The notes: generated by a model from the sequence alone, not told the origin. A stretch of DNA of 62,982 bases, filler included, from 13 parts of 13 records of this genome joined end to end with filler, not necessarily neighbours in it; one strand, 5' to 3'. Counted from the first letter of the whole stretch, positions 1-33,913 are shown. A program made the numbers and translations.

Positions 1-233
1 GAGGGGTGTTGTTGTGTCTGTGCGTGCGCAGGTCCGTAGGTGTATGCATTGAGTATGATTGTGGGGGTATGATGACATGCTTATGGGTGCAAACGCGCAC
101 TGCCGTGCGTGTATGTGCTGTCTATCGCATATCTTAACCTCACCGTCGTTCATGTGGTGTATCGGTGTTTGTGTTTGTGTGTTCAGTTTATCTGTGTGGA
201 TACTCAACTCTGTGTGTGTACGATTGTGCACAG

Positions 234-373
234 AGCGATCCTCTCTGCTTGCGGCTGAGTCTGCAAGCAGGCCGCGTCCCGTCATCCCCCTCTATGGCAG
301 TGAGAGTGAACGGATGCAGGCACTGCCACTCATCACAGCGAAGAAGAAGGGATGCAAATGCACTTTGCTTTAG
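234..373 (+). CDS. Probable 3'-terminal exon of a prenylated (CaaX) protein, partial
   Basis: CAG acceptor at 231-233 after a TG-rich intron-like tract; the frame ends ...ITAKKKGCKCTLL-TAG, a polybasic stretch plus CaaX box. Confidence 0.45.
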
Positions 374-906
374 CAGCAGCGAGTGGTGCGGTGAACACGT
401 GTGGGAGTTTTCACGTCGAGACCCCCGCCCCCACCGATGTGTGCATCGTGTATGTTTGATGTGTTCATGTGCGTGTCCGTGTATTATGGTGCGCGTCTGT
501 GCGTTGCGTCTGTGTCTATCTCTGCGTATGCAGGTGATGGAGAGGGGGTAGTTGCAATGCCATAAGCGCACAACACTTGGATTTTAGTGTGGCTCGCGTA
601 TTTATTGTGTCTTGTGTTGTGCGTGATTCCGTTGTGTGCGTACTCCAACGAGGTGGTTTCTGTTAGTGGGATTAATATTAGGCTGCATGATAAAGCCTCG
701 TACGGACTCGATGCACACAGCGCATGAAACAAAGGCTCACTACGGATCCCACATCACATCTATCATATTATATTTTGATGAACACTGTGGGGGGTGAGTC
801 CTGCGATTCTCTCCTCTTGTGTATGTATCTCCTCTGTCAGAGACCCATGACAGTACTGTATTTCTTCTCGCTGTCTCTTTGAGTCCTTGATTTCCTTCCA
901 GTAACA

Positions 907-2361
907 ATGACTGAGAATATATGGTTACGCACCGTAAGCTATCTTCGTGAGCAACTGACGAAAACATCACAAATTGCGGATGCGTCATTCTCACTTTGTA
1001 CACCGGACTTGGAAGTGCGTCGAACGAAAGCGGTCCGGGAACTGCGGAGAGTGTTTTCTGAAGCGGTGCGTGAGGCTGGAGTGCGGCGCGAACCTCCACA
1101 AGCTTTTCAGCGATGGCATCTTGCGTCGCTCGAGGCTGGGGTTGGTGACCCGCTGATCCCATCGCGGCCTGTATTTCACGAGGTCCTCGCTGAGTTAAGC
1201 AAAGCAGGCATGCATCCCAAGTACGCGGGGGACATCGTGAAAACACTAAGCGATGCCTGTGTTCGCCTTGCGAGTGATCGCAACTCTGTGGATGATTCCC
1301 CTTCCGTCGCGTCCGTGTCGTTACGGGACGTAGGAGACCGGGGCTTCGAGGTTGAATTCCGTGACCTCAAGTACAGTATCCGTCGCGAGCATCACGAGAA
1401 ACTGTTTGTCTGCTACCGCCGCGTGCAGCCTCACTCGACAGAAGGGTTTGCGAGTGCGCTGTTCTGTCTCTTGGCACGGTACGACTCGCTGGGTGGCGTG
1501 GGGTACCAGGCTGCCCTGCCCCCGCGTGTGTTTGCGGAGCTTACGGCTCAGTTTCATGTTCGTCTCGAGTGCTTCGCATCCCCGCTGAACTGCTGCTACG
1601 GCACGTTCTGCAGCGCGTTCGCAGACACGGACGCACCGTTCGGCAGCTTGGGCTCGTTCTTCCGGTTCCGGCCTTGCTCGGGCTCCTTCGAGGTCAACCC
1701 TCCCTTTGTAGAGGCGGTGATGCTGCGAATGGCACAGCATATGATCACGCTGCTTTCCGAAAGTCAGCAGGCCCTGTCCTTTGCCGTTTTCATCCCCAGC
1801 TGGACGGATACACCAGCGTGGCCTCTCATGCGTGAGTCCGCGTTCCTGCGCCGCTTCTTTGTTGTTCCGCAGAGCGATCACGCATACCGCACCGGGGACC
1901 AGCACCGGAACACGGGCGATGGGTACCTGCCCGCGACCTTTCACACAGCAGTGTTCTTCCTGCAAAACGACGCCGGACTTCAACGCTGGGCCCCAACCGA
2001 CGAGCGTGTATCGGCTCTCCTGCGCGCGTTCCAGGAATCGAAACCTGTGTTGACGGAGGATCGGCAGCGCTATTATGATGCGCAGATGGCGCGCAAACGG
2101 GCACGCGACGAAGGTGATCAACGGCCGCACGCGTTGGGTGCCGGTCTAGAGGAGTTTGTCAGTGAGTCGGTGCGGACGCTACGGACGGCGGTGAACCATA
2201 GTAAGGAGGATCGTGTGGCTCGTGCAGCACCCACTGTTGAGGATGGCAATGGTGGTGGTGGTGATTCCGGTCTTGATGGTGGTGGCAGGGAGAAGGAGGC
2301 GGTGTCGGTGGAGGAGCCGGAGCGTGCGGCAAAGCGCACAGCTGTTACTGCAGAGGAGTGA
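907..2361 (+). CDS. PCIF1: PCIF1/CAPAM-like mRNA cap (2'-O-methyladenosine-N6) methyltransferase, 484 aa, intronless
   Basis: Motifs LFCLLARY, GYQAALP, ECFASPLN, FCSAFADTDAPFGSLG and GSFEVNPPF (catalytic NPPF at 1696-1707) match the PCIF1 methyltransferase domain; the helical-domain segment EPPQAFQRW is also present; no WW domain seen. Confidence 0.92.
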   Translation: MTENIWLRTVSYLREQLTKTSQIADASFSLCTPDLEVRRTKAVRELRRVFSEAVREAGVRREPPQAFQRWHLASLEAGVGDPLIPSRPVFHEVLAELSKAGMHPKYAGDIVKTLSDACVRLASDRNSVDDSPSVASVSLRDVGDRGFEVEFRDLKYSIRREHHEKLFVCYRRVQPHSTEGFASALFCLLARYDSLGGVGYQAALPPRVFAELTAQFHVRLECFASPLNCCYGTFCSAFADTDAPFGSLGSFFRFRPCSGSFEVNPPFVEAVMLRMAQHMITLLSESQQALSFAVFIPSWTDTPAWPLMRESAFLRRFFVVPQSDHAYRTGDQHRNTGDGYLPATFHTAVFFLQNDAGLQRWAPTDERVSALLRAFQESKPVLTEDRQRYYDAQMARKRARDEGDQRPHALGAGLEEFVSESVRTLRTAVNHSKEDRVARAAPTVEDGNGGGGDSGLDGGGREKEAVSVEEPERAAKRTAVTAEE

Positions 2362-2949
2362 TGGCTTGTGTGCGAGTCCATGTCCCTGTTGCACATATCA
2401 TGGCTCTCGATATATGTTTCCTGAAAGCAGCTTGTGCGTTGCGTTGTGAGTGTACGTTGGGTATCTTCCCGTTGTGCACTCCCAGAAGGACGAGTGGCGA
2501 ATATTGGCAGCGGAACGTGGATGATGCCTTCGAGAAGGTTGCGTCCAGTAACATTATGGGGGCGCTGTTCCCTAGCACTGGCCTGTCTTCTTTGTGCGTT
2601 AGGGTTGTTGCAGTAGCCTGTTGGTTTGTTGTATGGGAGGGGTGTGGGACGTTCCCTATGGATTTGCTGCCTGTATATTCATCGTGGAGTATGTATGGTT
2701 GTCGGGCGAGTCATGGGAATATATGTGTATCACAGCTGTGGAACGCTATGCGTTATGGGCCACGTGTTCCTGGTCCCTATAAGTCGCTCCCCACTGTACA
2801 TCAACTATCGATACACGACAGTGCTAAATCGCTCGACGTTTCGATGCTAGCCAACATGGGGGGTGGCGTTTCGTGTTCCTTGCGCGACTCGTAATTTTAC
2901 AGGTTGCTTCTCCGGTGTAGCATTTCGTATCGAGGAAAATTACTCGTGA

Positions 2950-4317
2950 ATGATGTCATCCGCCCGCATTAAGAAAAAGCGGTTATGGCAGCAGCTGAAT
3001 GAGACCCCTGCACCATTTCATCGACCGTCGTCTCCTACTTTTGAATCTGTTCAGCGGAAACACTATCCTCTGTTCCGTCATATTCCTTTGCTGCCACACT
3101 CAGACGATTCTCAGCATGGGCTATCCATCGAGTCAGTGGAGCAAATTGAGTCGTCACTGGAAGCGTTGCAGCGCAATGGACTCATGCAACAGAATATCAC
3201 AGAACGAGATGGCCGCTTCAGTATCACCACCGTTCAACGCATCTTGTTCGGTGATCCGGGTCTGACCTATCTGTACCTGGGCGTTCGGCTGTTTGCGTAC
3301 TCATGGGAAGACCCGCCATACGCCTTCATGCACCGCTGCAACGACGCACTCACGCGTATGACCCGCGCACAACCGGACGGCGAGGCTGCCCCCCGCTACA
3401 ACATCTCGCTGGTGAACTTCGTGGATGCGCATCAGACCGAGTCCCTGGCCACGGAGCCCTATTATCAGATGGGCCCGCTGGCGGTGATGTGGCACTCAGA
3501 CCAGACGTTGCGGGCGGACTCCTCCATCGCGGTGCTGCAGTGCTCGCGGCATGAGCTGGATGCGGCGCAGCAACGGCGCTGGGCGGTGGGGCTGAAACGT
3601 GCGTGGGATGTGGACACGCCTGCGCTGTCGGTTCCGCTGCAGCATGGCGATGTGTACCTGCTTCTCGGAGACATGAACCTGACGCATCAACACTGTGTGC
3701 TGGCGGGTGAGAGCTCGCGCTACAGCCTCACGCACCGGGCGTGTCTGGAGGAGGGCCATACCGCAGCGTATATTCAACAACGTGCAGAGCAAGCGGTAGC
3801 GATCTCCCAACAGTGGCGGTCGTGGGCAGACAACACCCTCAAGCAGTCCGCTACGACGAACCCCGCTGTGGATGTCGTCAGTCCAAACGTGCAAACCCTG
3901 GTGTTGTTAGGGGACGTGGTGGTAGAACTGGAGGGGGACTGGCTGCGGCAGTTCTGGGCGCTGGGCACACACCACGCACAGCACAACTCGTTCTGGGTGC
4001 CGATCATGCGCGCGCTGAGTGAGACGTGGCTCGTGCTGGAACAGAGTCTGGAGGCGGTGTATGCACGATGCTGTGGTAGCGAGGGTGATGGGTCCGCCGG
4101 GAACAATGTGCGGGAGACGGCGGAGCGAGTGCTGCGGAGGCAGTGGTCTATGCGACAGGCGTGGCATGCGAGGTACCAAAGCCCTCTCGTGCAGCAGCTT
4201 GCCGTGCGGCACCAACCGGTGGAGCCCCCCGTGTGTGCACAGGCGTGGGAGCTATATGTGTGGCACGGGCTGGAGCAGATGGCTGCCGAGTGTGGGTGGG
4301 CCACGGATGAATCATGA
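2950..4317 (+). CDS. FTO: FTO-like Fe(II)/2-oxoglutarate RNA demethylase with N-terminal AlkB-type and C-terminal helical domains, 455 aa, intronless
   Basis: RILFGDPGLTYLYLGVRLF, YNISLVNF, EPYYQMGPLAVMWHSD (HxD at 3493-3501), HQHCVLAG (distal His 3691-3693), RYSLTHR (Arg at 3718 and 3736) and C-terminal-domain motif WLRQFW are all FTO-specific; N-terminal basic NLS-like RIKKKR. Confidence 0.93.
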   Translation: MMSSARIKKKRLWQQLNETPAPFHRPSSPTFESVQRKHYPLFRHIPLLPHSDDSQHGLSIESVEQIESSLEALQRNGLMQQNITERDGRFSITTVQRILFGDPGLTYLYLGVRLFAYSWEDPPYAFMHRCNDALTRMTRAQPDGEAAPRYNISLVNFVDAHQTESLATEPYYQMGPLAVMWHSDQTLRADSSIAVLQCSRHELDAAQQRRWAVGLKRAWDVDTPALSVPLQHGDVYLLLGDMNLTHQHCVLAGESSRYSLTHRACLEEGHTAAYIQQRAEQAVAISQQWRSWADNTLKQSATTNPAVDVVSPNVQTLVLLGDVVVELEGDWLRQFWALGTHHAQHNSFWVPIMRALSETWLVLEQSLEAVYARCCGSEGDGSAGNNVRETAERVLRRQWSMRQAWHARYQSPLVQQLAVRHQPVEPPVCAQAWELYVWHGLEQMAAECGWATDES

Positions 4318-4811
4318 GACGGGCATAGGAGTGGTGGGTGTCGTGCATGTATGGGTGTTTGCAGCCTGAATGAAGTATTAGGGGAGCCGGGATGGTACAC
4401 AATGAAACCAGCAAGTAAGTTGTGACCAGCGTGTATCAAAGCGCAAGGGCATAGTCCATGAGCCGAATAGTCAAGTATTTATTTGTATGTAGAAACGCCC
4501 AGTCGCATAAATATAACACCCTCTAGTTAGGGAGCACACACAGACACATCACCCACCCACAGACGGCAATCCAGCCACAATTGTTAGGGGGCGCACTGTG
4601 CTGAGACAATAAACACTGAAACATTGATAGCATGACTCGATCATACCGTGAGATGGCGTATGCCAGGGTACTAACAGCCTCTTGCATAATCGCAGCACCG
4701 AATTCCCGGCACGCGCAGCACTCGCGCACGGAACACACGCAACACTCATACACATCACAAAAAGATATAGGCAAACCACTCACTGATAGGCACATACAAC
4801 ACATATCAACC

Positions 4812-6276
4812 TCACATCTGCATCTTGACCTGTTTATCCGCCTGCTTCTTCTTCATGTACCGCAAATATTTCTTGTATTTGGCGCTTTGCAAGAACTCTT
4901 TCTGCTTCTGCGCCTGCTGCTCCTTCAGCCGTTCAAACTGCTCTCGTGTTAGGTTGTTCAGCTTCATGTATTGTTCCTCCATTTCCGCCGCGGATAGAGT
5001 GGGCTGCATAAGATACTTGGCCAGCTAATAATGATGATGACGTTGCGCAGACACGGTGAGACGTGCACGGAAGAAACAGAGAGGAGACCGAGAACAGAGA
5101 GGGACATGAAGCAGCTGTACATGACAGCACAATACGAAAACAAACAGAGAACAGACGTGGTCGAAGTGTGCCCCCCTGTTGCAGAGAGGTACGATAAACG
5201 TTACTGCGCAACAAAGATAACAAAACACCGCATGCGTTACCAAACGCACACTACCCAGGACGAAACTGACATACCTTGTACAAGTAATACGGAATCATGA
5301 CAATCTGTACCGGCAGCAGATCCTTCCATGTGGGCGGACTCACACCCACCACCTGCACACACACACATCAAAACCGACACATACACACGATATCCACGCC
5401 AGCTATGTGCACAGACACGCAACAACCATGCAGTACACACAAACACGACGACATACGTATATACATACGTAGCACATGAGCTCCCAAGAACTTATGACGA
5501 TAATATTTACCAAATCCACGCAACCCGTTGACCAGTTGCAGGAAAGGTGTCTAAGATCTAACTCACAGATATCACACGACGAAACCGTACCTCCAGAGGT
5601 ACATCGGGGTTTTCAATGCCTGCCTCTTTCTGTTTCTTGTACTCCAATTGATAGGATGCGGATTTCTTCGCCAAACGCATCACCTTGTGGTACTTGTTGC
5701 GCTGAAATATATGCTTGGCTGTAATTCAACGGACACACACACAGTGTGAATCACACGGTACACAGGTGCTATGCTCGCTCAAACTCAAAACCGAAACCCC
5801 CCGAACCAGCGTACCTACGGTAATGACCGCGAACAGGGAGGCGATCACGAGACGAACATCGTGAACAGGAGCGCCAAACCGATGCGCATAACGACCATAA
5901 ATACGGGCCCCAAACGGAACACCGTCACGCCGCATAGTTTCATACTCGTTGCGTGCCACATCATCCGTGAGAATGTCAGCGATGCGTGAGATCAGCAAGA
6001 ACATCTCTTTTGCTTCAACAGAGGGGTTCTTGTCCGGGTGACTACCAACAGTTACACACAAATAACTGGGAAACGATCGCTCACATACTAGAGAATCGTG
6101 AGTTTGCGATATGCTTTCTTGATCTCAGCGAGAGAGGCCCCTTCCTGTAGTCCCAGAATAGAGTAATATTCTTTCCCAGATAGAATGTCATCGGCCATCT
6201 CGTAATAGTGAGAACTGACACAATACACCGTCGATATGCACAATACTGCGCATAGAATGAATGCAAACGCCTTCAT
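4812..6276 (-). CDS. Membrane J-domain (DnaJ/DNAJC25-like) co-chaperone, 5 exons: 6276-6089, 6041-5815, 5718-5591, 5352-5275, 5024-4812 (277 aa)
   Basis: Signal peptide, YYSILGL...EIKKAYRKL, HPDK joined across a 47-nt GT-AG intron, hydrophobic segment and PTWKDLLPVQ; all four introns are GT-AG and phases sum to 834 nt. Confidence 0.82.
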
Positions 6277-6512
6277 ATCTGCTAAGGGGCCAAGTAAAGA
6301 ATGAAAATATGTGGTGAGAAATGGAACACTTGTGCATGCCGTAGTCAGGTTTTCTCTGCTTGAGTTTAAAACAACACCCTTTTTTTCCAGGCAGAACCTG
6401 ACACCCTAGCTTACGGTTTTCGTTTTCAGCTACTTCGACGAGTCCACACTTCATTTTCGAGTGCGCCTTTACAGCAGCACTTCATTTGTGCTTTTGCATA
6501 TATTTGCTCACG

Positions 6513-7020
6513 ATGCCCCCGAAACGAAAAGTTTCTGAGCCTGCGATGACCGTTGAGGCGGACGTTTTCGCATTCGACGAACCCGCACAGAAAGTCAAAA
6601 CATATGGACGGAAAAGCGTTGCTACAGATGCGAAGGGCTCATCCAAAGCGGCTATGGCGTCAATCGCGGCTAGTCAGGATGTCGCCGTTCATTATCACCC
6701 CAAACCGAGCCCTGCCAAAGTCAAATCCTCAACAGCACCCTCTGAGCCCAGCGCCAAAACCACTGGGAAAAAGCAGACTGAACGCAGTGCATCTGAGGAT
6801 CGTGACAGCAAGAAGGCGAAGAAGGCAAAAGTCGCCCCCGAGCCCCTCCCTGAGCCCGCTGTGACGCCCCGCGGGAAGGCGACGAAGAAGGACACCCCGA
6901 GCAAGTCCGTCGATGAGCCACCGCTGGCCACCTCCACACCCGCAAAGACGCCGCGCGGTCGCAAGCCCAACCCCACCACACCCATCCCCGCATCCACCAG
7001 CAACGACGCGGGCGCCACGT
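6513..7020 (+). CDS. Lys/Pro/Ser-rich nuclear protein, N-terminal part only (truncated by contig end)
   Basis: ATG at 6513, MPPKRK NLS-like start, several S/T-P-x-K/R-like sites, TPRGRKP AT-hook-like motif, DVFAFDE and KTYGRK motifs. Confidence 0.6.
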
Positions 7021-7120: not shown

Positions 7121-8613
7121 ATCTCAAAATCAACGCCCGCTTTGATCTGCAAGCCCAGTTTCTGAATGCGCATTTCGATCACGTTCGGACGACCGATAAG
7201 GATCGGTTTCGCCAGTCCCAGCGTTACCAGTTCCTGAGTGGCATGCAGAACGCGCGCCTCTTCCCCTTCCGGCAGAACAACGCGCTTCGGCGCTTTGCGA
7301 GCCTGGGAGAAAATCGGCTTCATAAACAGGTTGGTTTTGTAAACGAACTCAGTCAGCTTGTCGATGTAGACGTCGAAATCAGCAATCGGACGAGTCGCCA
7401 CGCCCGACTCCATCGCGGCTTTAGCGACCGCAGGAGCGATCTTAACGATCAAGCGCGGATCAAACGGTTTTGGAATGATGTATTCCGGACCAAAGCTCAG
7501 ATCCTGATCGCCATACGCTGAAGCCACCACTTCGCTCTGTTCCGCATGGGCGAGTTCTGCAATCGCACGTACCGCCGCCAGTTTCATCTCTTCGTTGATG
7601 GCGGTTGCGCCAACGTCCAGCGCGCCACGGAAGATGAACGGGAAGCACAGGACGTTGTTCACCTGGTTCGGATAGTCAGAACGACCGGTGCAAATGATGG
7701 CATCCGGACGCACTTCTTTCGCCAGCGGCGGCAGAATTTCCGGTTCCGGGTTCGCCAGCGCCAGGATCATTGGCGCACGAGCCATTTTCTTCACCATTTC
7801 CTGGGTCAGCACTTTCGGGCCGGAACAGCCCAGGAAAATATCCGCGCCTTCAATCACATCATCGAGGGTACGTTTGCCGTCATCCACCACCGCATATGCG
7901 GCTTTGGTTTCCGCCATGTTTGGCTCACGGCCCTGATAGATAACGCCTTTTGAATCGCAAACCACGATGTTATGTTTTTGCAGACCCAGCGCTACCAGCA
8001 GGTTCATACAGGCGATTGCTGCGGCACCCGCGCCGGAAACCACCATCCGCACGTCGGAGATGTTTTTCTCCACCACGCGCAAGCCGTTGAGGATGGCGGC
8101 AGTGCTGATAATTGCCGTGCCGTGCTGATCGTCGTGGAATACCGGAATATTCATCCGCTCGCGCAGTTTCTGTTCAATATAGAAACATTCTGGCGCTTTA
8201 ATGTCTTCGAGGTTGATGCCGCCGAAGGTTGGTTCGAGCGCGGCGACAACTTCAATAAATTTGTCCGGGTCGAGTTCGTCAACTTCAATGTCAAATACAT
8301 CAATCCCGGCGAATTTCTTAAACAGAACGCCCTTGCCTTCCATCACCGGTTTGCCTGCCAGCGCGCCAATGTTGCCTAACCCCAGCACCGCCGTACCGTT
8401 AGAGATCACCGCCACCAGGTTACCTCGGGCGGTATATTTGTAGGCTTTTAACGGGTCTTTTTCGATTTCAAGACAAGGTGCGGCAACGCCTGGTGAGTAG
8501 GCCAGCGCCAGATCGCGCTGTGTTGCCAGAGGCTTGGTTGGAGAAACCTGGATTTTCCCTGGAACTGGAAATTCATGGAAATCAAGTGCACTTTGTTTTA
8601 ACTGGTCATCCAT
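7121..8613 (-). CDS. maeB: NADP-dependent malic enzyme, 3'-truncated by contig end
   Basis: [20 protein letters not shown] start, FHDDQHGTA motif, start of PTA-like domain. Confidence 0.97.
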
Positions 8614-8901
8614 TTGGTTGTTCCTTTCACGTAACGTTCACAAATAAAGTGTGTGGGCAACAGCCCCTGCCCACAACGTGGCGCACATTATTACCCTGCC
8701 GGAGTCTACAGACTTTGAGCAAGTCCAAACTCTCACCATTAATATAATGTTTTGGTAATAATCCTATAACACTGATGTTACCTGCTTAATCCAGCAATAC
8801 CATGCCTGTCTGCTATGCTTTTTTGATGCGTTTAGCGAAATTTCTCAGAAGTGTGAATTAACGCACTCATCTAACACTTTACTTTTCAAGGAGTATTTCC
8901 T

Positions 8902-9852
8902 ATGAACGAGTTAGACGGCATCAAACAGTTCACCACTGTCGTGGCAGACAGCGGCGATATTGAGTCCATTCGCCATTATCATCCCCAGGATGCCACCACC
9001 AATCCTTCGCTGTTACTCAAAGCTGCCGGATTATCACAATATGAGCATTTAATAGACGATGCTATCGCCTGGGGTAAAAAAAATGGCAAGACCCAGGAAC
9101 AACAGGTGGTCGCAGCGTGTGACAAACTGGCGGTCAATTTCGGTGCTGAAATCCTCAAAATCGTACCCGGTCGCGTGTCAACAGAAGTTGATGCACGCCT
9201 CTCTTTTGATAAAGAAAAGAGTATTGAGAAGGCGCGCCATCTGGTGGACTTGTATCAGCAACAAGGCGTTGAGAAATCACGCATTCTGATCAAGCTGGCT
9301 TCGACCTGGGAAGGAATTCGCGCGGCAGAAGAGCTGGAAAAAGAAGGTATTAACTGCAACCTGACGCTGCTGTTTTCTTTTGCACAGGCACGGGCCTGTG
9401 CGGAAGCAGGCGTTTTTCTGATTTCGCCGTTTGTCGGGCGTATTTATGACTGGTATCAGGCACGCAAGCCGATGGACCCGTATGTGGTGGAAGAAGATCC
9501 GGGCGTTAAATCGGTGCGCAATATCTACGACTACTATAAGCAACACCACTATGAAACCATTGTGATGGGCGCGAGCTTCCGTCGCACCGAACAAATCCTC
9601 GCCTTAACCGGCTGCGATCGACTGACTATCGCACCGAATTTACTGAAGGAGCTGCAGGAAAAAGTTTCGCCAGTGGTACGTAAATTAATCCCACCTTCTC
9701 AGACGTTCCCACGCCCAGCTCCCATGAGCGAAGCGGAGTTCCGTTGGGAGCACAATCAGGATGCGATGGCGGTAGAAAAACTGTCTGAAGGCATTCGTCT
9801 GTTCGCCGTTGATCAACGCAAACTGGAAGATCTTCTTGCCGCCAAACTATAA
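8902..9852 (+). CDS. talA: Transaldolase A
   Basis: DATTNPSL and [12 protein letters not shown] motifs; 316 aa; E. coli gene order. Confidence 0.98.
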
Positions 9853-9871
9853 ACCAGCCACGGAGTGTTAT

Positions 9872-11875
9872 ATGTCCCGAAAAGACCTTGCCAATGCGAT
9901 TCGCGCACTCAGTATGGATGCGGTACAAAAAGCCAACTCTGGTCATCCCGGCGCGCCGATGGGCATGGCTGATATTGCCGAAGTGCTGTGGAACGATTTT
10001 CTTAAACATAACCCTACCGACCCAACCTGGTATGATCGCGACCGCTTTATTCTTTCCAACGGTCACGCGTCGATGCTGCTCTACAGTTTGCTACATCTGA
10101 CCGGTTACGACCTGCCGCTGGAAGAACTGAAGAACTTCCGTCAGTTGCATTCGAAAACCCCAGGCCACCCGGAGATTGGCTATACGCCAGGCGTTGAAAC
10201 CACCACCGGCCCGCTTGGACAAGGTTTGGCGAACGCCGTCGGGCTGGCGATAGCAGAGCGTACACTGGCGGCGCAGTTTAACCAGCCAGACCATGAGATC
10301 GTCGATCACTTCACCTATGTGTTTATGGGCGACGGCTGCCTGATGGAAGGTATTTCCCACGAAGTCTGTTCGCTGGCAGGCACGCTGGGACTGGGCAAGC
10401 TGATTGGTTTTTACGATCACAACGGTATTTCCATCGACGGTGAAACAGAAGGCTGGTTTACCGACGATACGGCAAAACGTTTTGAAGCCTATCACTGGCA
10501 TGTGATCCATGAAATCGACGGTCACGATCCGCAGGCGGTGAAGGAAGCGATCCTTGAAGCGCAAAGCGTGAAAGATAAGCCGTCGCTGATTATCTGCCGT
10601 ACGGTGATTGGCTTTGGTTCGCCGAATAAAGCAGGTAAGGAAGAGGCGCACGGCGCACCACTGGGGGAAGAAGAAGTGGCGCTGGCACGGCAAAAACTGG
10701 GCTGGCACCATCCGCCATTTGAGATCCCTAAAGAGATTTATCACGCCTGGGATGCCCGTGAAAAAGGCGAAAAAGCGCAGCAGAGCTGGAATGAGAAGTT
10801 TGCCGCCTATAAAAAGGCTCATCCGCAACTGGCAGAAGAGTTTACCCGACGGATGAGCGGTGGTTTACCGAAGGACTGGGAGAAAACGACTCAGAAATAT
10901 ATCAATGAGTTACAGGCAAATCCGGCGAAAATCGCTACCCGTAAGGCTTCGCAAAATACGCTTAACGCTTACGGGCCGATGCTGCCTGAGTTGCTCGGCG
11001 GTTCGGCGGATCTGGCTCCCAGCAACCTGACCATCTGGAAAGGTTCTGTTTCGCTGAAGGAAGATCCAGCGGGCAACTACATTCACTACGGGGTGCGTGA
11101 ATTTGGCATGACCGCTATCGCCAACGGCATCGCGCACCACGGCGGCTTTGTGCCGTATACCGCGACGTTCCTGATGTTTGTTGAATACGCCCGTAACGCC
11201 GCGCGGATGGCGGCACTGATGAAAGCGCGGCAGATTATGGTTTATACCCACGACTCAATTGGCCTGGGCGAAGATGGTCCGACGCACCAGGCTGTTGAGC
11301 AACTGGCCAGCCTGCGCTTAACGCCAAATTTCAGCACCTGGCGACCGTGCGATCAGGTGGAAGCGGCGGTGGGCTGGAAGCTGGCGGTTGAGCGCCACAA
11401 CGGACCGACGGCACTGATCCTCTCAAGGCAGAATCTGGCCCAGGTGGAACGTACGCCGGATCAGGTTAAAGAGATTGCTCGTGGCGGTTATGTGCTGAAA
11501 GACAGCGGCGGTAAGCCAGATATTATTCTGATTGCCACCGGTTCAGAGATGGAAATTACCCTGCAAGCGGCAGAGAAATTAGCAGGAGAAGGTCGCAATG
11601 TACGCGTAGTTTCCCTGCCCTCGACCGATATTTTCGACGCCCAGGATGAGGAATATCGGGAGTCGGTGTTGCCTTCTAACGTTGCGGCTCGCGTGGCGGT
11701 GGAAGCAGGTATTGCCGATTACTGGTACAAGTATGTTGGTCTGAAAGGGGCAATTGTCGGGATGACGGGTTACGGGGAATCTGCTCCGGCGGATAAGCTG
11801 TTCCCGTTCTTTGGCTTTACCGCCGAGAATATTGTGGCAAAAGCGCATAAGGTGCTGGGAGTGAAAGGTGCCTGA
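9872..11875 (+). CDS. tktB: Transketolase 2
   Basis: [16 protein letters not shown] start after [15 protein letters not shown] ThDP motif; 667 aa. Confidence 0.98.
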
Positions 11876-11882
11876 TGGTGAT

Positions 11883-11921
11883 TGCCGGATGCTGATTGCC
11901 GGATGCGACGCTGACGCGTCT
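11883..11921. repeat. REP element, partial at contig end
   Basis: TGCCGGATGCGACGCTGACGCGTCT matches the REP consensus. Confidence 0.8.
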
Positions 11922-24310: not shown

Positions 24311-25047
24311 CGACCATCACCGCTTATGACTATAGCTTCGCCAAACTCTTTGCTGATGAAGGGCTTAACGTCATGCTGGTGGGCGATTCGCTGGGCATGA
24401 CGGTTCAGGGGCACGACTCCACCCTGCCAGTTACCGTTGCCGATATCGCCTACCACACTGCCGCCGTACGTCGCGGCGCACCAAACTGCCTGCTGCTGGC
24501 TGACCTGCCGTTTATGGCGTATGCCACGCCGGAACAAGCCTTCGAAAACGCCGCAACGGTTATGCGTGCCGGTGCTAACATGGTCAAAATTGAAGGCGGT
24601 GAGTGGCTGGTAGAAACCGTACAAATGCTGACCGAACGTGCCGTTCCTGTATGTGGTCACTTAGGTTTAACACCACAGTCAGTGAATATTTTCGGTGGCT
24701 ACAAAGTTCAGGGGCGCGGCGATGAAGCGGGCGATCAACTGCTCAGCGATGCATTAGCCTTAGAAGCTGCTGGGGCACAGCTGCTGGTGCTGGAATGCGT
24801 GCCGGTTGAACTGGCAAAACGTATTACCGAAGCACTGGCGATCCCGGTTATTGGCATTGGCGCAGGCAACGTCACTGACGGGCAGATCCTCGTGATGCAC
24901 GACGCCTTTGGTATTACCGGCGGTCACATTCCTAAATTCGCTAAAAATTTCCTCGCCGAAACGGGCGACATCCGCGCGGCTGTGCGGCAGTATATGGCTG
25001 AAGTGGAGTCCGGCGTTTATCCGGGCGAAGAACACAGTTTCCATTAA
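24311..25047 (+). CDS. panB: 3-methyl-2-oxobutanoate hydroxymethyltransferase, 5'-truncated
   Basis: LVGDSLGM and GHLGLTPQ motifs. Confidence 0.96.
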
Positions 25048-25058
25048 GGAGTCACGTT

Positions 25059-25910
25059 GTGTTAATTATCGAAACCCTGCCGCTGCTGCGTCAGCAAATT
25101 CGCCGCCTGCGTATGGAAGGCAAGCGCGTGGCGCTGGTGCCTACCATGGGTAACCTGCACGATGGCCATATGAAGCTGGTCGACGAAGCCAAAGCCCGCG
25201 CCGATGTGGTCGTCGTCAGTATTTTCGTTAACCCGATGCAGTTCGACCGCCCGGAAGATCTGGCTCGTTATCCACGGACCTTGCAGGAGGACTGCGAGAA
25301 GCTAAACAAACGTAAAGTGGATTTAGTTTTCGCCCCTTCGGTAAAAGAGATCTACCCGAACGGTACTGAAACCCACACTTACGTTGACGTTCCTGGCCTT
25401 TCGACCATGCTGGAAGGTGCCAGCCGTCCGGGACATTTTCGCGGCGTTTCGACTATTGTCAGCAAGCTGTTCAACCTGGTCCAGCCGGACATCGCCTGCT
25501 TCGGTGAAAAAGATTTTCAGCAACTGGCGCTGATCCGCAAAATGGTTGCCGATATGGGCTTCGATATTGAGATTGTCGGTGTGCCAATTATGCGCGCCAA
25601 AGACGGTCTGGCGCTAAGTTCCCGTAACGGTTATCTGACGGCGGAACAACGCAAAATTGCGCCTGGTCTGTACAAAGTTTTAAGTTCGATTGCTGACAAA
25701 TTGCAGGCTGGGGAACGGGATCTCGATGAAATTATTACCATTGCGGGGCAAGAACTGAATGAAAAAGGCTTCCGCGCCGATGATATTCAGATTCGCGATG
25801 CCGACACATTGCTGGAAGTTTCTGAAACCAGCAAACGGGCAGTAATTCTGGTAGCCGCCTGGCTTGGCGATGCTCGCCTGATCGACAACAAAATGGTCGA
25901 GCTGGCGTAA
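25059..25910 (+). CDS. panC: Pantothenate synthetase
   Basis: [10 protein letters not shown] and GEKDFQQ motifs. Confidence 0.98.
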
Positions 25911-25983
25911 TACTTAACTGGCGCTACGGCTGATGGCGCCAGTTATTAATTTACCCCACGTCATCTGTCATAACACAGGTAAC

Positions 25984-26886
25984 TTAAATAAGGTTAATTA
26001 CCTTATCAATCTCAGCAAGAGGTAAATTTGCCATCTCTGCAACGTCTTCCCGAGACATTCCTTTACTCAGAAGACGCTGGGCGAATTCCTGACTTACTTC
26101 CTGTCTTCCCTGCTGAATCCCCTTCTCAATCCCTTTCTCTTCAAACCACTGCGCCAGCGTCATCATAGACTCCCCTCCCGTTTCCCTGTCTCTCAACACA
26201 CCGTAAAACAAATCCGCTTGTTCAGTATGACCGCGTTGCAGCATATAGTTTTGCATGGCAACTAACTGACTTCCGCTAGTGTACCCTTCGTCGATCAGCG
26301 TGACCAGTTGCTCAAGCAATAACATTAAGTCGCGCTGGCGAATATGTTTTTGCAGTAGTTCGAGAATCGCAATCCGCCGATGTTGCATGATTTCGTCATC
26401 CGGTGTGATGGTGATATCCACCAGCGGGAAAGGACTGTTATAGACGCGTCGCGCCAGCTCCGGCGAGTAAAACATATCAAACCAGCACATTGATAGCGGA
26501 TAAGGTGTGGCCTCGCCCTGATAAAACAGTATCGGCACCACCAGCGGCAGCTTATCGTGGTCAGCCTCCAGATGCCGGTGCATGGCGGCTATAGAATAAC
26601 GCATCATGCGAAAGGCCATTTTCTTATCCGGCTTGCTTTGGTGTTCAATCACAACATGCAGATAACCGGGATTGCCCTGCATTTGCACGGAATAGAGCAC
26701 GTCCGTGCTGTGTCCTTTCAGGCTCTCTTCAATGAAACTCCCCGACTCTAAATGAAGCGTGTTGAGGTCACAAAGTTCGCGTAATTCCACTGGCAAATGT
26801 ATCTCCAGAAAGTCGCGAGCCGTCTCCGCATGCATTAAAAATTGTTTAAATACCGCGTCATGCGGTGTGGTACTCGGTGCATCCAT
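25984..26886 (-). CDS. rpnC: Recombination-promoting nuclease (YhgA-like/Transposase_31 family, YadD)
   Basis: TPHDAVFKQFL, DVLYS, IEHQS motifs; located between panC and panD. Confidence 0.93.
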   Translation of the reverse strand: MDAPSTTPHDAVFKQFLMHAETARDFLEIHLPVELRELCDLNTLHLESGSFIEESLKGHSTDVLYSVQMQGNPGYLHVVIEHQSKPDKKMAFRMMRYSIAAMHRHLEADHDKLPLVVPILFYQGEATPYPLSMCWFDMFYSPELARRVYNSPFPLVDITITPDDEIMQHRRIAILELLQKHIRQRDLMLLLEQLVTLIDEGYTSGSQLVAMQNYMLQRGHTEQADLFYGVLRDRETGGESMMTLAQWFEEKGIEKGIQQGRQEVSQEFAQRLLSKGMSREDVAEMANLPLAEIDKVINLI

Positions 26887-27159
26887 CTTCCCTGTCTTCC
26901 GTGTGGCTTTGCGTGAAGGCAGTATCCAGTCAAGGCGCGCTATCGTCAGCCACCTCTTTATTGTTTACCGAGCAGCGTTCAGAGAAATATCAATTCGTTA
27001 CAGGCGATACATGGCACGCTTCGGCGCGGTACGCAAACTGCTGACGCAAATGCCGTCAGATGAGTAGACACTAAACAAAAATCGGGCAATACTGCGTGAG
27101 AATTTCCTCAAAGCAGGCATCGCCTGCTTCGTTAACGACAGGGTAGAAAGGTAGAAGTT

Positions 27160-27540
27160 ATGATTCGCACGATGCTGCAGGGCAAACTCCACCGCGTGAA
27201 AGTGACTCATGCGGACCTGCACTATGAAGGTTCTTGCGCCATTGACCAGGATTTTCTTGACGCAGCCGGTATTCTCGAAAACGAAGCCATTGATATCTGG
27301 AATGTCACCAACGGCAAGCGTTTCTCCACTTATGCCATCGCGGCAGAACGCGGTTCGAGAATTATTTCTGTTAACGGTGCGGCGGCCCACTGCGCCAGTG
27401 TCGGCGATATTGTCATCATCGCCAGCTTCGTTACCATGCCAGATGAAGAAGCTCGCACCTGGCGACCCAACGTCGCCTATTTTGAAGGCGACAATGAAAT
27501 GAAACGTACCGCGAAAGCGATTCCGGTACAGGTTGCTTGA
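27160..27540 (+). CDS. panD: Aspartate 1-decarboxylase
   Basis: YEG/SCAID self-cleavage site, 126 aa. Confidence 0.98.
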
Positions 27541-27543
27541 TTG

Positions 27544-28773
27544 TTATCCCTGCGGCTGGTTACTCACCAGCCGCGACATCGTCTCCAGCGAATCCGTTCT
27601 TAAGATATAAAGTCGTTTTAGTAACAACGGATTATCCCCCGGTTTTACTTTGCCTTTCATGGTTGTCACCGCCAGGTGAAATCCGGCATCGTTTGCTGCC
27701 TTCACGGCGTTGTCATTAAATCCGCCAAACGGATACGAAAGATACCAGACATGCGGATTAAATTGCGCCAGAGCGCGGCGTGAACGTGCAAAATCAAACA
27801 GAATATTGTGCTCACTACGGCTCAGTAATATGGGTCGGCGATAACCATCTACCCGATGCAAAAAATGGGTATGTGACTGGAAATCAAATACATCGCGAAT
27901 TTCGTTAAGCTCAGAAACGCTCATAAATTGCAGCGATTTTGGGTTCCACTTCTGCGGGTGACGTTTGATGCGTGAGGTAACAATAAACGCCGTCGCCTTC
28001 ATGCCATATTGTTTCAACACAGGATACGCATAGCGGCTCACCGACTTGAGGCCATCATCAAAGGTAATCACCACCGCTCGCGCAGGGAGATTGATCTTAT
28101 TCTTCACGTAGCCTTCCAGCTGCACCATGCTCAGTGTCGCGTATCCCCTGTCACGCAGCCAGGCCATCTGGTTATTGAAAGCGCGTACCGATGTGGTCGT
28201 CGAAGTATGGCGAAAACGGGTGTTTTCTTCGTCGCGCAGAATATGGTGATAGGTTAGCACCGACAGGCCATTATCGGGTTGGGCATCCAGTGCGCTGATA
28301 TAGGCCAGTCGATCGCCAATACGGATCTGATACCAGGTTTGATTTAACCTGTCTTTCAGTTTATGCAAAATCGGGTAGCGCAAATTGTCCGCCAGTACCC
28401 CAAATGGCGCACTTCCCGCACTCGGCGCGTTATAGACCGGCGTATCTTTCCAGGTAACTAAGTTCTGATTACTCAGCGGCTTGTTGAGGTCGCCCAAACC
28501 GTCTTCAACTTTTTGTCGCCCCTGAACCGGCTCGAGATGACCTTTATCGATAAAACCTTTGCCAAAGCCAAAATTAAATGCGTAATAACTTGCGGCAGTG
28601 GGCTCCACGGCAATGATTTGTCCGGCCCGAATATTCCCCACGGTCACCATCTTGTCACCAATTTGCGCCCAGACCGCAGCATTTTCGATGGTTTGCATAT
28701 AACGGGCAGGTAACGCGGCACTGACACTTGCGGTAAACAGCATCAGCAGGAGAATAACAGCTTGTTTGTACAT
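27544..28773 (-). CDS. yadE: Putative polysaccharide deacetylase
   Basis: ITFDDG, SHTHFLH and YPFG NodB-type motifs. Confidence 0.94.
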
Positions 28774-28836
28774 GAAAAAATAACCGAGGGTGAAACAACG
28801 CTTTTATTGTAGCAAAAGCGCCATCAGAATCGCGGG

Positions 28837-29277
28837 TTAATACTCATACAAATTATGTTTGAGGACGAAAGGCGGATTTTTTTGTTGTTGGTGCCAAAGA
28901 CTACTCACCTCCGGCGCACCCAGTTCGACAATACGCTCGCGAAACTCTGAACTGGTCATGGTTTCACGGCAAGCCATCATCTGTTCAATTAACGGTAACG
29001 TGACACCAGAAATCACTTCGCAACGGGAGTGTTTGTGGCTTAATAATGAAGCCACGCGATACGGTGGCGCTCCGGCTATATCGGTTAAGAAGATGACACC
29101 CTCACCAGAGTCCGCTTCATGCAGAGCATCGCACATCATGCGGCTGAGCATATTAGAGCTTAATCCGCGCCAGAAATTCACGGCCCGGCACTGAAGAAGT
29201 GCCCCATGTTTTTTCTCCAGCGCATCCAGTATCTCTTGCGCCCGGTCATCGTGACAGGTAATTACCCAACCTAACAT
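28837..29277 (-). CDS. yadI: Putative PTS enzyme IIA (mannose family)
   Basis: VITCHD and FLTDIAGAPPY motifs. Confidence 0.92.
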   Translation of the reverse strand: MLGWVITCHDDRAQEILDALEKKHGALLQCRAVNFWRGLSSNMLSRMMCDALHEADSGEGVIFLTDIAGAPPYRVASLLSHKHSRCEVISGVTLPLIEQMMACRETMTSSEFRERIVELGAPEVSSLWHQQQKNPPFVLKHNLYEY

Positions 29278-29381
29278 CGCCTTCCTCCTTAGCCGAAAAT
29301 CAGTCTACCCTGACCATTGTTGATAAAGGGTGATAGCCGTCAAAACTCCTCTCCCCCAAATCCAGAGGAGAGGAAATAGCC

Positions 29382-30152
29382 TTAGCTACGCAAACCACGT
29401 CCACGTTGGATCAGCGACCAACAGATCAAATAAAACGCCACAATAAAGACCACCAGTACGCCAAAGGTAGTGACCAGCGGAACATCATTGATACCGAGGA
29501 AGCCGTAGCGGAAACCACTGATCATATAAACGATTGGGTTCAGGTGCGACAGCCCTTGCCAGAACGGCGGCAACAAAGTCAGTGAGTAAAAGACCCCGCC
29601 CAAATACGTGAGTGGCGTTAACACAAAGGTTGGCACCAGGCTGATGTCATCGAACGTTTTGGCAAACACACCGTTCAGCAAACCCGCAAGGGAGAACAAC
29701 ACCGCCGTGAGCACCAGCGTTAAGGCAACGAATACCCACGAATGCACCTGAAATGGCACAAAAAACAGTGAAATTGCCGTCACCAGAATGCCAACAAACA
29801 GACCACGCGCCACGCCACCGCCGACATATCCGGCAATAATGACGTGAGTCGGAACCGGCGCTACCAGCAGCTCTTCAATATTACGCTGGAACTTGGCACC
29901 AAAAAATGATGACGCAACGTTGGCGTAGGCATTGGTGATCACCGACATCATGATCAGCCCCGGTACGATGAACTGCATATAGCTGAAGCCATGCATATCG
30001 CCAATACGCGAACCAATCAGGTTACCGAAGATAATAAAGTAAAGGGTCATGGTGATGACTGGCGGCACCAGCGTCTGCACCCAGATACGCATAAAGCGAT
30101 GGATCTCTTTCGCCCAGATGCTTTTTAGCGCCACCCAGTAAAGATGCATCAT
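29382..30152 (-). CDS. yadH: ABC-2 transporter permease
   Basis: Multi-TM ABC-2 membrane protein downstream of yadG. Confidence 0.94.
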   Translation of the reverse strand: MMHLYWVALKSIWAKEIHRFMRIWVQTLVPPVITMTLYFIIFGNLIGSRIGDMHGFSYMQFIVPGLIMMSVITNAYANVASSFFGAKFQRNIEELLVAPVPTHVIIAGYVGGGVARGLFVGILVTAISLFFVPFQVHSWVFVALTLVLTAVLFSLAGLLNGVFAKTFDDISLVPTFVLTPLTYLGGVFYSLTLLPPFWQGLSHLNPIVYMISGFRYGFLGINDVPLVTTFGVLVVFIVAFYLICWSLIQRGRGLRS

Positions 30153-31076
30153 GCGCGATCTCCTTGTTTTTCATTAACCAGTGAAACAAACAGCTCTTCC
30201 AGACGGTTAGCTTTGTTACGCATACTTAATACCTGAATGCCCTGCTCACTTAACTGCGTAAATACGCTGTTGATCCCCTGCTCACGCAGCACTTCAACTT
30301 CCAGCGTCGCGGTATCGACCAGTCGATACTGATAGCCATCGAGCTTCGGTAACGGGCTTTTCGGTGCGAGATCGAGAATAAAGGTTTCCGATTTCAGCTT
30401 CGCCAGCAGCGCCTTCATCGAGGTATTTTCCACCAGCTCACCGTGTTGAATAATGCCGATATTGCGGCACAGCATTTCTGCTTCTTCCAGGTAGTGTGTG
30501 GTGAGAATGATGGTGGTGCCTTTGTCGTTTAAATCCTTCAAAAAGCCCCACATTGAGCGGCGAAGTTCAATATCCACGCCTGCGGTCGGTTCGTCGAGAA
30601 TCAGTAGTTTAGGTTCATGCATTAACGCACGGGCAATCATTAAACGGCGCTTCATCCCGCCAGATAACATACGCGCACGTTCGTTGCGTTTTCCCCATAG
30701 ATCGAGTTGTTTAAGATACTTTTCGCTGCGGATGTACGCTTCTTTGCGCTCCACGCCGTAGTACCCTGCCTGATTCACCACAATTTGCTGCACGGTTTCA
30801 AACGGGTTGAAGTTAAATTCCTGCGGCACCAGTCCCAACTGACGTTTAGCGTTCACGACATCCTTCTCGAGATCGTAACCAAATACGCTGACCCGCCCGG
30901 AGGTTTTATTTACCAGAGAGCTGATAATACCGATAGTGGTCGATTTCCCGGCCCCGTTCGGCCCGAGAAGCGCATAAAAATCACCCGCTTCGACCTGCAA
31001 ATCTATCCCACGAAGCGCCTGAACGCCGCCTGGATTAGGTTTTTTTAAGCTGTTGAAGTTCCAGTGCAATGGTCAT
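30149..31076 (-). CDS. yadG: ABC transporter ATP-binding subunit, apparent +1 frameshift near 31035
   Basis: ATG at 31076 gives MTIALELQQLKKT then TAA; the rest (GPNGAGKST, LSGG, ILDEPT) is in another frame; span 928 nt. Confidence 0.92.
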
Positions 31077-31210
31077 AAATTTTTACTTACCTTACGTTCT
31101 TACACTTTATNNNNNNNNNNNNNNNNNNNNNNNNNNNNNNNNNNNNNNNNNNNNTTAATTAATTAANNNNNNNNNNNNNNNNNNNNNNNNNNNNNNNNNN
31201 NNNNNNNNNN

Positions 31211-31898
31211 GGGCATATTAGCAGCATCATGCATGAGTGCAAGGGCGTCCGTGGGTGCGTCCTTGTAGATGAGCGATGCCAGGCTGCGGAGGATGGTAGC
31301 GGAGGGCTTGTGCGCAAACGCACGCTGCAGCAGGGAGACGGCTACACACACACAAAAAAAACACGACACATGTAAGCACGGGCGTGCACGAAAGGCTGAC
31401 GATGAGAAACACACAAAAATGATCTCAAAGGAAGGAGAAAGCGAGACACAAGGATACGATGCTGCATGAAGATAGAACGTGGAACTCTTATACCTAAGGG
31501 CCTATCACCGGCTGCAGTCGCCAAAGTCGCAGCAGCCTCCAAGGAGTCAAACGCAAGATCCACCATGGTAGATCGCTCAGCCCGCTCGGCAGCCCCCAGA
31601 AACAAGTTCAAAGACGACTGCGGGGTGTCTTCCAGTACGATGCGAGCCAGTTCAAACATAGCGTGCGGCATATCGGGGAACGTGTTGATTGCGGTTTGCA
31701 GCAGATTCGCTGCTTCCTGAAGCTGACCTGATTCGGTCATTTGTTTTGCTTGCGCACTAAGAGCACCGGGTGATGAGGAGACTTGATTCGATGAAACAGT
31801 TGCATATACATTGCAGCATGGTAATCTTCCACTGTTGCTTCCTGTGCCACGACGACGGACACAAGAAGAGCCGCAATGACGGCGATGGCCCTCATCAT
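31211..31898 (-). CDS. Secreted alpha-helical TPR-like protein, 3'-truncated; exons 31898-31810, 31756-31494, 31341-31211
   Basis: Signal peptide MMRAIAVIAALLVSVVVA, GT-AG introns in consistent phase, TPR-like GQLQEAANLLQTAINTFPDMPHAMFELARI. Confidence 0.65.
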
Positions 31899-32130
31899 GG
31901 CTGAAGATCCAAAGGAATCAATGAACTTCGCCGCTATTATTCGCTGGGACTGAAAACGAGGAAAGCAGGTTGGGTGACAGGCGAGCGGACAAACAATGCT
32001 GCCAGGGCGCAAACGAGTTTTCAAGTTCAAGTTTTCATGAATGCGCCATTAGTCCCGCTTCTTTTAACTTCCTCGTTCTAAGTCCGCTGCAGCGGCCGAA
32101 TTATGGCTAATTCGATGTAAACTGTGTTCT

Positions 32131-32847
32131 ATGCGAATGACACAAATCGAGTACAATTCTGGACCGCATGAATACCTCATTCGACGACTTCAGCCATCGG
32201 ATGTAGAATCCCTCGCTCAAGCGTTTGCAGACTCTTTCTCGCGGGATCCCCTCTGTGCGTTCCTGCAGTTCGATCCGAGTTCGCATGCGTCCTACGCACG
32301 CGATACAGCTGCGGAGTGGCTCCAACACGGCCTCTCCTTTGTGGCCGTGGAACGCAACGCCCCTGATGCAGTGGTCGCGTTTCAAGTGTGCACCCTGCTC
32401 CCACCCGCTCTCTCTAAGCCCCACGCCACACCGCCCACGCAGCAGGAACCTTCCTCGCGTTCACTGCGGTTTCTTTTGGAATGCTTGCACACACTGGACC
32501 GCGTAATGAGCATCCACGCACAAGTTCAAGGCGTTGACGCCGCTCAGGTCATGCTCATCGGATCGATCGGCTGCTTGCGTGCCCACGAGGGCCGTGGACT
32601 AGCAACGCAGCTCAACACGATCTGTCTGCAGCATGCACACAGCGCAGGAATGCGGTTCGCGTATGCACAGACGGCATCGCTGGTGTCTCAGCGCGTGCTT
32701 GCGAAGGGCGGCCTGTGTGTGGTGTATGAGGTTGCAATGCGGGACTTGGTGTTTGATGGGGAGCGACCGTTTGTGCGGTGGGCGCAGGACGCACTCGAGA
32801 CGGGGTCGCGGACGCTGCAGCTGATGGCGACGCGGTTGGATGTGTGA
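32131..32847 (+). CDS. GNAT N-acetyltransferase resembling insect-type arylalkylamine N-acetyltransferases, intronless
   Basis: IRRLQPSD, FSRDPL, GLSFVAVE, acetyl-CoA motif HEGRGLATQL, TASLVSQRV, C-terminal DGERPF. Confidence 0.75.
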   Translation: MRMTQIEYNSGPHEYLIRRLQPSDVESLAQAFADSFSRDPLCAFLQFDPSSHASYARDTAAEWLQHGLSFVAVERNAPDAVVAFQVCTLLPPALSKPHATPPTQQEPSSRSLRFLLECLHTLDRVMSIHAQVQGVDAAQVMLIGSIGCLRAHEGRGLATQLNTICLQHAHSAGMRFAYAQTASLVSQRVLAKGGLCVVYEVAMRDLVFDGERPFVRWAQDALETGSRTLQLMATRLDV

Positions 32848-33632: not shown

Positions 33633-33893
33633 ATGAAAAATCTCATTGCTGAGTTGTTATTTAAGCTTGCCCAAAAAGAAGAAGAGTCGAAAGAACTGTG
33701 TGCGCAGGTAGAAGCTTTGGAGATTATCGTCACTGCAATGCTTCGCAATATGGCGCAAAATGACCAACAGCGGTTGATTGATCAGGTAGAGGGGGCGCTG
33801 TACGAGGTAAAGCCCGATGCCAGCATTCCTGACGACGATACGGAGCTGCTGCGCGATTACGTAAAGAAGTTATTGAAGCATCCTCGTCAGTAA
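33633..33893 (+). CDS. iraP: Anti-adaptor protein IraP
   Basis: [22 protein letters not shown], 86 aa, upstream of phoA. Confidence 0.96.
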
Positions 33894-33913
33894 AAAGTTA
33901 ATCTTTTCAACAG

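Follow-up and report, generated by a model that had tools for sequence, protein, structure and literature searches.

Here we describe a pair of neighboring genes in a stretch of DNA of 62,982 bases, the whole of which was analyzed and is hereafter called the window. It is not one contig: 13 contigs are chained in it by N44-TTAATTAATTAA-N44 spacers, and the pair lies on the first. One gene encodes a protein of the PCIF1/CAPAM family of cap adenosine N6-methyltransferases (open reading frame 1, ORF 1), the other a protein of the FTO family of Fe(II)/2-oxoglutarate dioxygenases (ORF 2). Both are on the forward strand, head to tail, each as a single exon, 588 nucleotides apart on gap-free sequence. 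The contig that carries them is of eukaryotic origin, with no match in 5,426 Escherichia coli genomes and with introns in a neighboring gene. The features of the pair are as follows.

1-7020, no strand: eukaryotic contig with the gene pair, first of 13; no N in 1-7020, N runs from 7021
907-2361, forward strand: gene for a PCIF1/CAPAM-family cap adenosine N6-methyltransferase without WW domain, 484 amino acids, single exon
1696-1707, forward strand: catalytic NPPF motif, residues 264-267
2362-2949, no strand: spacer between the PCIF1 and FTO genes, 588 nucleotides, read directly from the sequence
2950-4317, forward strand: gene for an FTO-family Fe(II)/2-oxoglutarate dioxygenase, 455 amino acids, single exon
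3493-3501, forward strand: Fe(II) ligands in H182-S183-D184 (human H231-H232-D233), from the alignment with human FTO
3691-3738, forward strand: third Fe(II) ligand H248 and the 2-oxoglutarate-binding stretch R257-Y-S259-L-T261-H-R263 (human H307 and R316...R322), invariant in the FTO alignment (A1)
3760-4233, forward strand: FTO C-terminal helical domain, residues 271-428, with model helices at 272-416

ORF 1 matches the Pfam family PF12237 (PCIF1_WW) with an E-value of 9e-59 and 198.4 bits, against a curated cut-off of 31.1, and the CAPAM chains 6irx (3.7e-56) and 6irv (5.2e-55) of the PDB. Its residues agree with the family consensus at the invariant columns of an alignment of 38 PCIF1-family sequences (A3). 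In the NPPF motif, P265, P266, and F267 are invariant and N264 nearly so, and the S-adenosylmethionine (SAM)-pocket motifs ECFASPLN and FGSxGSFF occupy invariant or almost invariant columns. The AlphaFold model of ORF 1 (predicted local distance difference test, pLDDT, 86.6) has a helical domain packed on the methyltransferase domain, as in the CAPAM core. It aligns with the CAPAM structures 6irv-6is0 over 466-497 alignment columns, with template modeling (TM) scores of 0.60-0.66 and E-values of 4e-25 to 1e-22; the next fold family has a TM score of 0.21 and none exceeds 0.24. The encoded enzyme should use SAM for N6-methylation of the cap-adjacent adenosine.

The N-terminal WW domain of PCIF1 binds the C-terminal domain of RNA polymerase II. 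We did not identify this domain in ORF 1, which has no match to PF00397 and begins at the helical domain. By hand count, it occurs in 12 of the 120 PCIF1 relatives among the matches listed, and it plays no part in the methylation reaction according to passages of PMC8287941. Being reported as dispensable for catalysis, the WW domain marks the animal form and not the PCIF1 family. An origin of ORF 1 from the PCIF1-like domain of DIRS1 retrotransposons, which is described in passages of PMC4738411, was rejected: the NPPF motif is intact and PF12237 is the sole significant Pfam match.

ORF 2 matches both FTO domains of Pfam, FTO_NTD (PF12933; 4.1e-57, 194 bits) and FTO_CTD (PF12934; 1.6e-20, 74.1 bits), with cut-offs of 27, and human FTO chains of the PDB at about 1e-48. 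For both ORFs, scores of this size go far above what chance would give. The Fe(II) ligands H182, D184, and H248 and the arginines R257 and R263 are invariant in the FTO alignment. The AlphaFold model (pLDDT 81.2) matches human FTO from end to end, with TM scores of 0.70-0.77 (query) and 0.77-0.82 (target) and E-values down to 1e-34, whereas ALKBH2 and ALKBH3 cover only the catalytic half of the model (query TM about 0.34).

Human residues were mapped onto ORF 2 with H231/D233 and H307 as anchors. The N6-methyladenine pocket is kept at human R96, Y106, Y108, L109, L203, N205, V228, W230, Y295, and R322; in ORF 2 numbering, the residues that read N6-methyladenine or line the methyl pocket are R97, Y107, Y109, L110, L154, and R263. 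Passages of PMC6386707 assign base reading to R96 and E234 and describe a hydrophobic methyl pocket. ORF 2 differs from human FTO at E234 (Q185), S229 (M180), H232 (S183), and I85 (R86), and Q185 could still form a hydrogen bond. As a full-length FTO-type dioxygenase, the ORF 2 protein should oxidize N6-methyladenine. The segment WHSDQ (3490-3504, residues 181-185) is common to the window, Gefionella, and a sponge-like FTO sequence; vertebrates have WHHDE. In the FTO alignment H232 appears confined to the vertebrate rows, and several protist sequences also have E234.

A first-pass annotation of this DNA had described two co-oriented, intronless ORFs 588 nucleotides apart on a gap-free contig, the first PCIF1-like with the NPPF methyltransferase motifs and the second with the complete FTO HxD...H and R...R set and C-terminal domain; the coordinates, domain matches, and structural comparisons above bear out this description. 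The N-termini of both ORFs match those of their homologues, and both therefore appear complete. A TGA stands directly before the ATG of the FTO gene, in frame. A spliced PCIF1-FTO fusion transcript is conceivable, but we found no support for it: the FTO gene has an N-terminus of its own that matches homologous N-termini, with this in-frame stop before it. A 178-amino-acid ORF inside the spacer has no Pfam match.

With short contigs and with E. coli K-12 host DNA in the assembly, a chimeric assembly or clone could in principle have joined two unlinked genes. No N, repeat, or composition break was found between the PCIF1 and FTO genes, however, and in composition the spacer is like the non-coding DNA that precedes the PCIF1 gene, with an excess of G over C and of T over A in both 1-1000 and 2501-3000. 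The G+C content of third codon positions (GC3) is similar in both genes (0.63 and 0.70). We consider such an artefact extremely improbable. The same measures give no sign within the window that the pair is foreign to its surroundings, the GC3 of the other eukaryotic ORFs being 0.51-0.68.

A pyrimidine-rich tract at 878-901 ends in CAG 5 nucleotides before the PCIF1 ATG, and TTTTACAG lies at 2893-2902, 47 nucleotides before the FTO ATG. Both could be acceptors of 5'-untranslated-region introns or of trans-splicing, and as such they would bear on co-transcription. Motifs shared upstream of the two genes amount to short two-copy matches at chance level.

Physical coupling of the two families also occurs elsewhere, within single proteins. 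FTO-family representatives at E<=1e-3 number 392 clusters, of which the best 150 are the FTO relatives considered here. Among them are 37 of at least 600 amino acids, and a Pfam scan of 36 (the omitted P0011 has FTO domains only) found PF12237 in two, P0233 and P0286. Searches by phmmer with both window proteins against 292 collected proteins singled out the same two only. In P0233 (839 amino acids), a match to the PCIF1 methyltransferase domain at 5-171 is followed by a linker and then by a full FTO protein at 276-789. The order is reversed in P0286 (815 amino acids), in which FTO at 17-356 and a linker precede the PCIF1 helical and methyltransferase domains (PCIF1 match 590-763). Each matches both CAPAM and FTO chains of the PDB, at 1e-21 to 1e-29.

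Five fused sequences were examined, and each keeps the catalytic motifs NPPF, WHxD, HQH, and RYSSTHR. Four near-identical members, found on eight contigs, make up the P0233 cluster, and P0286 occurs on two contigs of up to 24.8 kilobases; all are from uncultured eukaryotes. The two fusions are mutually related, with 60% identity in PCIF1 and 49% in FTO. Both ORFs begin inside a domain, and upstream exons are therefore probably missing. As a lead only, a search of the ESM Atlas with P0233 returned ordinary FTO clusters only, with a best score of 0.77.

In a collection of 5.8 billion clustered proteins, neither window protein has a close relative. Identity reaches 41-42% for PCIF1 by the search table, or up to 45% when taken over the tree columns, and 34% for FTO. 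The best named PCIF1 relative is P0013 from the malawimonad Gefionella okellyi, whose FTO protein is P0151. The FTO family is far larger than "vertebrates plus marine algae," with its 392 clusters at 50% identity falling into two deep groups.

The PCIF1 tree of 45 rows was built from the window protein, the PCIF1 portions of both fusions, and 42 relatives out of the 120 listed. In it, the window protein falls in a five-row clade with Gefionella and three uncultured sequences, with 97% support in the Shimodaira-Hasegawa-like approximate likelihood ratio test (SH-aLRT), and the fusions fall in a separate five-row clade with a Picozoa-containing cluster (support 98). Thus WW-less PCIF1 and FTO are both present in a deep-branching protist lineage that is malawimonad-related by this tree.

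For FTO, 64 rows were used (the window protein, 61 stand-alone proteins, and the FTO parts of the two fusions), with about 100 lower-ranked or partial representatives omitted. They form two groups of 25 and 39 rows, each with 100% support. In the 25-row group, which also holds animals, a cryptophyte, and Gefionella, the window protein sits on a long branch. The fusions belong to the 39-row group, and in both trees they are remote from the window genes.

Within the 39-row group the fused FTO proteins adjoin stand-alone FTO proteins with CCCH zinc fingers. These fingers are C-terminal in P0261, P0298, and P0190, which belong to this second deep group. In the parts of the literature covered, we did not find an architecture of FTO with RNA-binding CCCH fingers described. 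Zinc fingers on stand-alone relatives of the fused FTO proteins would fit an RNA substrate.

The two families are thus coupled in three independent forms, as neighbors, as a PCIF1-FTO fusion, and as an FTO-PCIF1 fusion, in two distant lineages. By the logic of gene neighborhoods and fusions, this argues that both enzymes work on the same molecule, and the known chemistry of PCIF1-type enzymes and FTO would make that molecule the cap-adjacent adenosine. The pair is real, and we favor, with some reservation, the reading that the pairing is functional, with one nucleotide as the common target of both enzymes. The PCIF1-type enzyme would add an N6-methyl group, with SAM as donor, to the first transcribed adenosine of capped RNA. 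The FTO-type enzyme would act on that same cap-adjacent adenosine. Linkage, as neighbors here and as one polypeptide elsewhere, would couple the level of the writer to that of the remover, and the mark would stay adjustable. Human FTO demethylates N6-methylated cap-adjacent 2'-O-methyladenosine (m6Am) preferentially, as described in parts of 10.1101/2025.05.09.653100. The pair supports, and does not prove, the PCIF1 product as the natural substrate of FTO.

The first-pass annotation had read the pairing as suggestive of a co-regulated or co-transferred module, while allowing for chance adjacency. Joint regulation may follow from the linkage as described above, and the association itself is strengthened by the fusions in two clusters, in opposite orders and with their motifs intact. 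The co-transfer part has gained no support: no FTO relative was found among viral contigs, and the GC3 of both genes is near that of the other eukaryotic ORFs. Its proposal of cap m6Am as an ancestral FTO substrate would likewise be tentative, two of the five human FTO residues reported to read the cap being changed in ORF 2.

Several observations weigh against a functional pairing. Adjacency itself is seen once, and the presence of E. coli DNA in the assembly speaks for modest assembly quality. Fusions are rare (2 of the 150 best FTO representatives out of 392), an FTO domain is annotated in none of the 120 PCIF1 relatives among the matches listed (precomputed Pfam annotation), and a search for longer homologues of the window FTO protein found none, which is weak evidence. 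Whether the fused ORFs are continuous depends on how the source databases called these genes. In Gefionella okellyi, P0013 and P0151 are separate transcriptome entries, and PCIF1 and FTO are therefore not fused there.

The scarcity of fusions, the separate Gefionella transcripts, and the single adjacency, together with the high gene density of the contig (four genes in 7 kilobases), would also suit mere chance, with independent genes as neighbors in a gene-dense genome and unrelated accidents of fusion elsewhere. By a rough estimate that was not computed, a named pair would be adjacent in a genome of about 10,000 genes in about 2 of 10,000 cases. Independently of the window, a distant lineage has both families in a single ORF, in two arrangements and with intact motifs, which chance does not predict. 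We regard coincidence as unlikely.

The two genes might instead be linked for regulation only, with PCIF1 acting on caps and the FTO-like enzyme on internal N6-methyladenosine (m6A), small nuclear RNA, N1-methyladenosine (m1A) of transfer RNA (tRNA), or N6-methyladenine (6mA) of DNA. Human FTO has several substrates, according to passages of PMC6386707. Parts of 10.1101/2025.05.09.653100 implicate five human residues in reading the m7G cap (Y220, H232, and W278) or the 2'-O-methyl group (L109 and I85). ORF 2 keeps three of the five (as Y171, W219, and L110). The other two are changed (H232 to S183 and I85 to R86) and the base-reading E234 is Q185, which both favors separate substrates and counts against a shared one. 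On the other side, the pocket residues R96, Y106, Y108, L109, V228, W230, and R322 are all kept, as are the cap-contacting Y220 and W278, and a one-polypeptide fusion would be hard to explain without a common substrate. Separate substrates therefore seem to us very improbable. A predicted complex of the window PCIF1 protein (residues 1-400) with the FTO protein, whose runs gave 0.00, 0.62, and 0.25, has no bearing either way.

A further possibility, parallel to ALKBH8, is a sequential pathway in which the FTO-type oxygenase would not erase the PCIF1 product but turn it into N6-hydroxymethyl- or N6-formyl-2'-O-methyladenosine (hm6Am or f6Am). Genes that fuse usually encode consecutive steps, and fusions of PCIF1 with FTO exist in either order. 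Going by the title of a 2013 report by Fu and colleagues, FTO reportedly forms the oxidized bases hm6A and f6A. Against such a pathway, the active site of ORF 2 is that of a canonical FTO, and in animals the oxidized intermediates decay to adenosine. We judge this pathway improbable on present analysis; a balanced pair of writer and remover is the most likely mechanism, and a two-step pathway to an oxidized mark would be less likely.

Since 2017, the debate on whether FTO physiologically targets cap m6Am or internal m6A has drawn on mammalian biochemistry alone. Gene neighborhood and fusion offer independent, organism-blind evidence on which proteins work together, and an FTO gene tied to PCIF1, with the two fused in both orders elsewhere, points to the cap-adjacent adenosine as the common substrate. 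Tentatively, PCIF1 and FTO may form a recurrently linked unit for this nucleotide, in which the original job of FTO would be the PCIF1 product; in a bolder form, the unit would make an oxidized cap mark (hm6Am/f6Am). It is conceivable, as part of this idea, that some marine picoeukaryotes have PCIF1-FTO as a single bifunctional polypeptide. If true, FTO would originally have acted on the PCIF1 product and not on internal m6A. For direct in vitro assays, the locus offers compact, intron-free natural enzymes, and the fusions offer bifunctional ones.

We looked for further linkage in other collections. Among metagenome contigs, the FTO alignment gave 114 pattern matches and two confirmed loci, with FTO exons spread over kilobases, and a tblastn search of these two loci with the window PCIF1 protein had no match. 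Viral contigs contained no relatives of the FTO alignment or of P0233, and contigs of prokaryote genomes contained none of an alignment of long FTO proteins (A2) or of the PCIF1 alignment.

The first-pass reader knew of no PCIF1-FTO gene cluster, and neither a cluster nor a fusion turned up in the full-text literature searched; domain-architecture databases or paper supplements may already show the fused form. Two evolutionary surveys (PMC4738411 and PMC8868631) likewise mention no cluster or fusion of the two in their passages on PCIF1 and on FTO. Each family by itself is well known.

The pair sits in a compact, intron-bearing protist genome. Downstream of the FTO gene is the following neighbor.

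About 4812-6276, reverse strand: multi-exon J-domain gene, with the J domain split by a 47-nucleotide GT..AG intron at 6088-6042 and more introns downstream

This gene converges on the FTO gene, and its HPD motif is restored when the 47-nucleotide intron is spliced out. A lysine- and proline-rich ORF without Pfam match starts at 6486 on the forward strand and runs off the contig end. The TG/CA-rich DNA had at first suggested a kinetoplastid origin, which we rejected because the J-domain gene is cis-spliced and on the opposite strand, and the best relatives are not kinetoplastid.

Elsewhere in the window, at least three contigs are E. coli DNA: the one at 7121-11921 is 100% identical to the tkt-maeB-tal region of E. 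coli K-12, and those at 24311-31110 and 45227-53650 are also 100% identical to E. coli K-12-type genomes. Because these lie beside eukaryotic contigs, the source is a draft eukaryote assembly contaminated by cloning-host DNA. In a phoA-like ORF at 33877-34686 (forward strand), ...GGKGSIT is directly followed by 16 further residues; this may correspond to the in-frame internal phoA deletion that laboratory strains carry. Two further contigs have a eukaryotic look. One (31211-33415) has a TPR-like ORF at 31342-31917 (reverse strand) and a weak GNAT-like ORF at 32131-32847 (forward strand). The other (40226-45126) encodes an ABC half-transporter at 43632-45125 (forward strand; ABC_membrane, 3e-32), with CA-repeat DNA before the ORF.

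Among known systems, ORF 1 is most readily compared with vertebrate PCIF1/CAPAM (PDB 6IRV and 6IRW, human; 6IRX-6IS0, zebrafish), with which it shares the helical and Rossmann methyltransferase domains, the NPPF motif, and the SAM-pocket motifs at about 25-27% identity across the whole crystallized core. Unlike the vertebrate protein, it lacks the WW domain and the long N-terminal linker and has an extra C-terminal helix pair (384-440) followed by a disordered acidic tail. The helix pair is common only to ORF 1, Gefionella, and three uncultured relatives. The human PCIF1 and FTO genes are on different chromosomes, whereas ORF 1 adjoins an FTO gene. ORF 2 and human FTO (PDB 3LFM, 5ZMD, and others) have the same double-stranded beta-helix and FTO-specific C-terminal helical domain, the Fe(II) triad, and the 2-oxoglutarate-binding arginines; the loop that follows residue 120 is shorter in ORF 2 by some 50 residues.

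Parts of 10.64898/2026.10.22.757692 describe WW-less, non-metazoan PCIF1-like proteins of less than 480 amino acids as m7G-cap-specific m6Am writers in vitro, 10 of 55 being active and two characterized. Compared by description only, PC04 and PC05 of that work resemble ORF 1 as short proteins (theirs <480 amino acids) of helical and methyltransferase domains; they come from protists or metagenomes, and in vitro they proved to be N6-adenosine methyltransferases specific for the m7G cap. In the parts of the source concerned, no genomic link to FTO is described; FTO is mentioned only in the Introduction, as the m6A Cap-1 demethylase, and in titles of references.

ALKBH8 is a precedent in that it couples an AlkB-family Fe(II)/2-oxoglutarate oxygenase with a SAM methyltransferase on one nucleotide. 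It differs in its methyltransferase family and in its substrate, the wobble uridine of tRNA, and its oxygenase elaborates the base by hydroxylation, with no erasure of a methyl group. The fusions P0233 and P0286 differ from the window pair in being one polypeptide instead of two genes, in showing both domain orders, and in their place in the trees, where they fall in the opposite deep group of FTO and in another clade of PCIF1. What they share with the window is the physical coupling of these two enzyme families, with all catalytic motifs intact.

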